Shown here one piece after another: positions 42,201 to 42,807 of a DNA stretch of 64,000 nucleotides. This DNA is from Chara braunii. Its lineage: Eukaryota; Plantae; Charophyceae. Location of the stretch: contig BFEA01000031.1 in NCBI GenBank assembly GCA_003427395.1, positions 74,003 through 138,002 on the forward strand, written 5' to 3'. The stretch's first letter is position 1. The number at the start of each line of letters is the position of its first letter. The notes under the pieces are model-generated. The model ran no database searches. It saw nothing but the letters and a program-made list of their open reading frames with translations, and was not told the DNA's origin. The position numbers and the translations under genes are program-made.

Positions 42201-42807
42201 GGCATTGTTTCTAAGACGAATGGTCTGACTGCTATGTTTATTTGGTTGTTTTCCGAAGAGCCAGAGATTGTTTCTTAGATGAATGGTCTCGTTGCTGTGT
42301 TTATTTCTGAGGGTCTGCCTGATTGAATGGGTTTAAGTTTGTTTTGTTATGAGGGAGGTTCGGACCAAAGACTAGACATTGTTTCTAAGATGAATGGTCA
42401 AAGTCTAAGGTCAGAGAATTATAATATAACAAAAGGAATATGACTCTCTATAATTATGTACCTATATGTATATGAGAACAAAATTAGCCAGACATTGTTT
42501 CTAAGATGAATGGTCTGACTATAACCTTATCACAACTGAAGAGGGTATAACGAAAAGCTATGACTGAAGGTAACTTGGGCAGGTTGAACATTCTTTCTAA
42601 GATAAATGACTCAGTCCGATGCTCACTTTTGAAGATTAAGCTCATATATATATATAAAACTTAGTTATTTAAACAGTTCAGAGCGGTTAAACATTGTTTC
42701 TTAGATGAATGGTTTAGTCATGTGCCCAATGAAGAGAAAAGTAGTTGTGCAACCTGTTCGTGTATAAGTAAGGCAGAGAGTTGACATTGTTTCTAAGACG
42801 AATGGTC
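42201..42807 (+). repeat. Interspaced array of seven 25-nt motifs (GACATTGTTTCTAAGAYGAATGGTC) in the LTR
   Basis: Copies start at 42201, 42264, 42375, 42491, 42587, 42690 and 42783, separated by non-repeated spacers. Confidence 0.92.

Follow-up and report, generated by a model that had tools for sequence, protein, structure and literature searches.

The 5' LTR of a retrotransposon of the charophyte alga Chara braunii contains a real array of seven hairpins, in which one conserved loop is carried on stems that differ from copy to copy. The pattern of changes in these stems suggests that they have probably been selected, and the array may serve to dock a protein on the RNA of the element. The array lies within a 64,000-nt stretch of contig BFEA01000031.1 (hereafter the window) and belongs to a gag-only, non-autonomous family of LTR retrotransposons with giant LTRs.

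The window was scanned with a 24-nt probe taken from copy 3. Seven copies of the motif were recovered, starting at 42203, 42266, 42377, 42493, 42589, 42692 and 42785, six of them with at most 3 mismatches and the seventh with 6; the scan found no further copy on either strand of the 64 kb. Start-to-start distances are 63, 111, 116, 96, 103 and 93 nt, in agreement with an earlier note on this DNA that described seven copies at intervals of 63-116 nt. That note gave the repeated unit as a 25-nt motif with a TCTAAGA core. The motif does recur, but the conserved part is smaller, consisting of an AT-rich 19-nt loop closed by a C-G pair and about 3 bp. Likeness among the seven hairpins is 92% in the loops and 65% at the three inner arm positions, compared to 38-41% at the outer arm positions and 21-32% in the flanks beyond. 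The core is TCTAAGA as described in five of the seven loops but TCTTAGA in the other two. The latter form is private to the window copy; the majority of the family has A at both 42276 and 42702.

All seven hairpins are given on the + strand. Hairpin 1 (42196..42230) has an 8-bp arm register and a 19-nt loop. Hairpin 2 (42259..42293) is decayed in the window copy, and the three differences listed for its stem in the family keep or add pairs. Hairpin 3 (42363..42412) has an extended outer stem. Hairpins 4 (42486..42520), 5 (42582..42616, with the most diverged loop of the array), 6 (42685..42719) and 7 (42778..42813) follow. The three copy-specific stems quoted previously are all present, with one C.A mismatch in hairpin 4 and one bulge in hairpin 7. 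The spacers between hairpin arms are 24-77 nt long and mutually unrelated (0 of 28 pairs at p<0.02; smallest p 0.032), and Tandem Repeats Finder reports no entry within 42201-42807. Thus, the spacers are unique, as had been claimed, although hairpins 1 and 2 have about 45 nt in common at 82% identity, some 3' flank included. Hairpins 5-7 have a common outer frame. The spacer that separates hairpins 6 and 7 has a purine-rich core (42730..42763, + strand), which is kept between LTR copies and is the array's deepest bin in the DNA contigs.

Lone 8-bp stems are common by chance (13 found versus 10.4 expected in shuffled LTR). The significant part of the array is the fixed register of the stems to the loop together with changes that keep pairs, not the 8-bp stems alone. 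In the fixed register, 45 of the 56 stem cells of the seven hairpins are paired, compared to 8-26 in slid registers. The hairpins are related by descent, so the shuffle p-values are optimistic: permutation of arms among the seven gave p=66/5040, swapping of flanks p=226/5040, and the five variable arm positions alone (27 of 35 paired) p=222/5040, while in a pair count with 85.7% of 77 cells paired the covariation score of 0.39 was reached by 4 of 500 shuffles.

The same sites can be followed in a second LTR within the window. Copy B (4067..6740, - strand) is the 3' part of an inverted LTR of a sister subfamily that interrupts a chromovirus-type pol. Because this copy is truncated at 6741, sites 5-7 and one half of site 4 are all that remain of the array. 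Copy B hairpin 5 (6640..6673, - strand) forms 7 of 8 pairs and has a different loop that includes TAAG, hairpin 6 (6555..6572, - strand) forms 7 of 7 pairs with the loop mostly deleted, and hairpin 7 (6465..6501, - strand) forms 8 of 8 pairs below a 21-nt loop with TAAG. In total, 22 of 23 orthologous stem positions are paired. Fourteen of the 23 differ between the window LTR (copy A) and copy B; 13 of these 14 are paired in B, and there are 3 two-sided Watson-Crick swaps. The spacers are orthologous in A and B, and could be aligned between the LTR copies as the earlier note had stated; its view that hairpin positions are conserved is borne out by the co-varying stems at sites 5-7. The stems that it quoted from the inverted copy and the two TAAG loops do occur there, although this comparison extends over no more than the three and a half sites that copy B retains. 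Where the note saw other stems, we find orthologous stems with compensating changes. It also proposed that the motif is homogenised within each subfamily. This holds for the subfamily of the window copy but not for copy B, where the loop of site 6 is lost and the two intact loops (sites 5 and 7) are unlike each other, although both have TAAG at the apex and a G preceding the closing pair. Loose-end contig rows reveal more loop variants on the same stems in other family members. The array belongs to the faster-evolving regions of the LTR: A and B are 57-65% identical within it and 79-91% identical immediately downstream.

Further family members were compared to the window copy using aligned contigs and reads. 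Among the best-supported 40 of 365 differences, 10 fall in the 56 stem positions, where 5 add a pair, 5 keep a pair and none breaks one, and 3 fall in loops, where all restore the common motif. Thus, the window copy is a decayed member of a better-paired family. The chance that all 10 stem differences would keep pairs is p ~0.0003 given the run's own substitution spectrum, or p 0.005 after two differences possibly derived from sister hairpins are dropped. At three stem places the family keeps G.T where the window copy has A-T. The earlier note had named a counter-case, in which the spacers would be decayed units of one tandem repeat and the stems would not covary. We find the opposite on both counts, with unrelated spacers and co-varying stems.

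Folding energy leaves the strand of the stems unsettled. Folding z-scores of individual hairpins in the window copy lie between -1.7 and +1.1 on the + strand; the array as a whole folds with a z of -4.1 on the - strand versus -1.5 on the + strand. In-context pair probabilities on the + strand are firm for hairpins 3 and 7 (0.7-0.9 for inner pairs), 0.3-0.5 for hairpins 1 and 4, and at most 0.14 for hairpins 2, 5 and 6. A hand count of stem pairs gave 10 G.U versus 2 C.A, an excess that does not reach significance once base composition is taken into account (p=0.12), and therefore the choice of the + strand follows mainly from the sense of gag. The family is transcribed at some level. Oligo-dT libraries with 101-nt reads placed 1,204 RNA reads on the array region in one run (X6) and 20 in another (X5). 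Most derive from other family members, as 25 of the 1,204 X6 reads are at least 99% alike to the window copy. Reads map to both strands in these libraries, which carry no strand calibration, and no start or end site is visible in them.

The 5' LTR of the window element (38654..45155, + strand) is 6,502 bp long and has the termini TGTCG...CGACA. Its start matches that of the 3' LTR at 50353 (91.6% over 916 nt), of which the first 913 nt are present (50353..51265, + strand). Its end at 45155 matches the end of copy B at 4067 and position 247 of L002, an independent and more distant copy of the family that has the same LTR end and the same acceptor-like sequence before gag. From these termini, 39567-42050 would be continuous LTR sequence; a nested insert may occur within it, and no repeat signature of one was found in this interval. 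The primer-binding site (45158..45175, + strand) is decayed in the window copy and is an intact TGG-type site in L002; it may resemble the Athila tRNA-Asp type. The polypurine tract is weak. No tRNA genes were identified in the 64-kb window. Self-priming was considered and rejected, as the LTR contains no convincing complement of the primer-binding site region.

The gag gene (46962..48050, + strand) is broken by stops and frameshifts, ends in a CCHC knuckle, and is followed by no pol remnant. Directly before its start there is a predicted 3' splice site (46921..46958, + strand) with branch-point and acceptor-like sequence, which is kept in L002. Relatives of Gag were found in 7 of 175 candidates, all of them named Chara braunii proteins (69-88% identical); the match to the Retrotrans_gag profile is weak (E 0.002, below the cut-off). 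Searches by tblastn with the window's own pol ORFs did not find pol in 45156-50352, nor in L002 before its 3' LTR. Given that gag is encoded between 6.5-kb LTRs and that neither copy has pol, we conclude that the family is gag-only and non-autonomous. The window element already spans 12.6 kb (38654-51265), and a full element with two 6.5-kb LTRs would be about 18 kb. The family is abundant, with 7,918 and 7,735 contigs matching the 1 kb around the array in two DNA runs of one sample, where contig depth is not equivalent to copy number.

A TATA-like box (42835..42841, + strand) follows hairpin 7 at a distance of 22 nt and has a conserved counterpart in copy B (6443). It is the predicted LTR promoter. 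The conserved block that follows (42900..43020, + strand; 91% identical in A and B) includes donor-like sites and is the putative R region. If the TATA-like box is the promoter, the array would form the end of U3; it would be promoter-proximal in the DNA and present in the RNA only near the 3' end. In that position the array would also be present on the predicted spliced gag mRNA, and thus could not pick out genomic RNA.

We tentatively favor the possibility that the array is a multivalent protein-docking site on the element RNA, most likely read by Gag. Conservation of the loop on arms that change yet stay paired points to a single-stranded site displayed to a protein, and Gag is the likeliest partner because it is the only protein encoded by the window copy. 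Among the functions suggested in the earlier note, multivalent protein binding best fits the combination of conserved positions and co-varying stems. The stems would fold on the sense RNA near its 3' end, at the end of U3, and display loops with a UAAG apex, and the presence of several loops could provide avidity. An RNA without pol would depend on a helper element for reverse transcriptase and integrase, and avidity might allow it to compete well for particle assembly. The hairpin units may descend from old duplications, and template switching or conversion may keep the loops of one lineage alike. A role in packaging is plausible, and is weakened by the predicted U3 location. It is conceivable, although we consider it rather unlikely, that the lineage-rewritten loops constitute an RNA address code read by the element's own Gag (or by the Pol of its helper), through which kin RNAs would outcompete those of rival subfamilies for packaging and helper enzymes.

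A host RNA-binding protein could be the reader instead, acting in export, stability or ending of an RNA with a putative 3' UTR of about 6.5 kb, or in restricting polyadenylation to the 3' LTR. The evidence for covariation of the stems applies equally to such a protein, and a site just upstream of R would suit functions at the 3' end of both spliced and unspliced RNA. Retroviruses have U3 elements that aid 3'-end formation as well as repeated export elements. Retention of the UAAG apex in copy B while the rest of the loop changed is also as expected for a constant partner. However, loops that are 92% alike in subfamily A are unlike those of copy B and other members, and this turnover exceeds what a fixed host partner would need. 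We regard a host reader as doubtful. Somewhat less probable is a neutral origin for the whole pattern: one hairpin unit would have been duplicated in tandem long ago, template switching during reverse transcription or replication would have preserved the complementarity of the arms, and conversion would have evened out the loops. Traces of such a history may be seen in the flank common to hairpins 1 and 2, in the outer frame of hairpins 5-7 and in contigs that join one hairpin to another with skips; the rapid evolution of the array relative to other LTR parts and the weak folding energy of the window copy are consistent with it as well. Duplication without selection does not readily explain why stems still pair when the spacers have diverged beyond recognition. 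Furthermore, copying from the other arm predicts perfect Watson-Crick arms, whereas the family keeps G.T at three places with A-T in the window copy.

It is also fairly unlikely, in our assessment, that the 19-nt motif is a DNA enhancer repeat lying just ahead of the LTR promoter, comparable to the Sirevirus motifs or the Tnt1 U3 boxes, with the stems of secondary importance. The array does end 22 nt before a conserved TATA-like box, and A/B identity climbs from 57-65% within it to 79-91% beyond. Sirevirus LTRs have, on average, 7.3 palindromes preceding a conserved TATA box, and the centre of these palindromes is less conserved than the arms (Bousios 2016, PMC4728375; Bousios 2010, PMC2829016). 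The resemblance to the Chara array lies in the approximately seven repeated hairpin-forming motifs in the same place, directly upstream of the TATA box, and in their variation between families. The Sirevirus motifs are short GC-rich palindromes of Copia elements, with a CGG-CCG core, conserved arms, a variable centre and a CpG island. The Chara array has 37% GC and shows the reverse arrangement, a conserved AT-rich 19-nt loop on variable arms, within the 6.5-kb LTR of a gag-only element. Moreover, binding to double-stranded DNA would not require that both flanks change together and remain complementary.

The earlier note described the array as CRISPR-like and alternatively as a processed small-RNA cluster. 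Apart from the repeat-spacer appearance, there is little to recommend either identification, and we consider both very improbable. Only retrotransposon domains and no cas domains were identified by Pfam (25 of the 97 window ORFs of at least 120 aa). The spacers are not of near-constant length (24-77 nt, with a spacing of 63-116 nt), match none of 50,697 phage records, and are inherited between LTR copies in the context of a eukaryotic retrotransposon. Thus, the array is not CRISPR-like in any functional sense and instead joins the known kinds of repeated cis-signal. The longest ungapped duplex (27 nt, allowing up to 4 mismatches) is within the 23-27 nt obtained in 5 shuffles, which argues against a miRNA or other hairpin-RNA precursor. 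No Rfam family matched the array; the search of 38600-46000 returned a single chance hit (E=4) outside of it. Palindrome regions of maize Sirevirus LTRs are siRNA hotspots, so siRNAs produced as a host response would be unsurprising here. The cores of the hammerhead and hairpin ribozymes were compared to the sequence by eye and rejected because partner strands are absent. A conserved 25-mer occurred in 0 stretches of a metagenome scan, and one viral-contig match to the motif (L001), single and unflanked, was rejected as chance.

Repeated loops on varied stems are a described form of viral encapsidation signal (PMC8206606, PMC6281560), and the Chara array has this combination of a repeated conserved loop and co-varying stems. 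The coronavirus RSMs (PMC8206606) and MS2-type signals (PMC6281560) likewise present a common loop or recognition motif on different stems and are lineage-specific. In contrast to the Chara array, which is known from sequence and is probably located in U3, those signals are present in genomic and not in subgenomic RNA, some with tested binding. Another structured region of the LTR, 44174..44480 (+ strand, in the 3' part; z -3.4), is a more conventional candidate for packaging or dimerisation than the array, and its presence weighs against the reading favored here. It matches 4745-5050 (- strand) of copy B, is 82-89% conserved between the LTR copies, and has 3 two-sided changes in 104 predicted pairs of a two-copy consensus fold.

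With regard to the element as a whole, TR-GAG elements (Chaparro 2015, PMC4350172) are similar in having LTRs with TG...CA ends, a primer-binding site, a polypurine tract and a gag ORF without pol. TR-GAG elements are <4 kb long, and in TR-GAG1 the LTRs are near 485 bp and no significant leader structure was detected. The Chara element differs in its size (at least 12.6 kb), its 6.5-kb LTRs and its hairpin array. Non-chromoviral OTA (Ogre/Tat/Athila) Ty3/gypsy elements have LTRs of up to about 5 kb, long non-coding regions and non-Met tRNA primers (Neumann 2019, PMC6317226). They share with the Chara family the very large LTRs and an extra ORF before gag, here seen in L002. Unlike OTA elements, the Chara family has no pol, so its lineage cannot be placed by reverse transcriptase, and the OTA repeats are tandem arrays rather than interspaced hairpins. 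Hairpins, packaging and secondary structure are not mentioned in the main text of PMC13570524. No description of this hairpin array was found in literature listings, which covered titles and the starts of abstracts, with subscription papers and supplements outside the search. LARDs, which likewise have very large LTRs and long non-coding regions, differ from the Chara element in that they are not known to carry an ORF.

The marking of RNA for particle assembly is largely untested in plant and algal LTR retrotransposons, above all in those without pol. Seven parallel sites and thousands of contigs with natural variants make the Chara array a ready data set for covariation analysis and a simple binding test. 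The array also suggests that some of the repeated motifs found ahead of LTR TATA boxes, which are generally interpreted as enhancers at the DNA level, may function in the RNA as 3'-end structures. Should the array prove to be no more than an enhancer or a by-product, it would be a curiosity confined to a single family of algal repeats.

Several other features of the LTR were identified. At the LTR start there is a hairpin (38661-38686, also at 50360), the central arms of which are kept in L002 (~5170-5196) while the outer arms have changed on both sides. About 250 nt into the LTR, a branch point, pyrimidine tract and AG occur at 38874-38925 and 50573-50620, and in L002 at 5400-5430, where the site holds its position despite diverged sequence. 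This suggests that splicing into U3 may occur at the 3' end of the RNA. Shortly before the array, donor- and acceptor-like sequences at 41947-42056 could delimit an intron of 110 nt. Both LTR copies include about three diverged tandem units of 120 bp in their T-rich part (43088-43414 and 5846-6188), and one segment there folds at z ~-3.

Elsewhere in the window, a 387-aa open frame adjoins a diverged tandem paralogue (14548-15711 and 15827-16639; 26% identity, E 1e-11), and the frame has no Pfam match. Three degraded Ty3/gypsy pol regions are present, at 725-4038 (- strand), 20611-25900 (+ strand) and 54232-56012 (- strand), at least one with a chromodomain-like end. The first of these is interrupted at its protease region by the copy B LTR. 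The more distant family copy, L002, has an open frame of 246 aa (1323-2060) that follows the primer-binding site and precedes gag. This frame was rejected as a candidate binder of the array, as it has no homologue in the window and no Pfam match, and its Atlas hits are <0.9 with low recognition. The Rfam search detected no U6 snRNA match in the window LTR. In L002, a full-length U6 snRNA match is located 1.1 kb into the 3' LTR (6300-6415; 57.3 bits versus a gathering score of 44). It may represent capture in the LTR, or a later insertion; Cassandra elements carry 5S rRNA within their LTRs.
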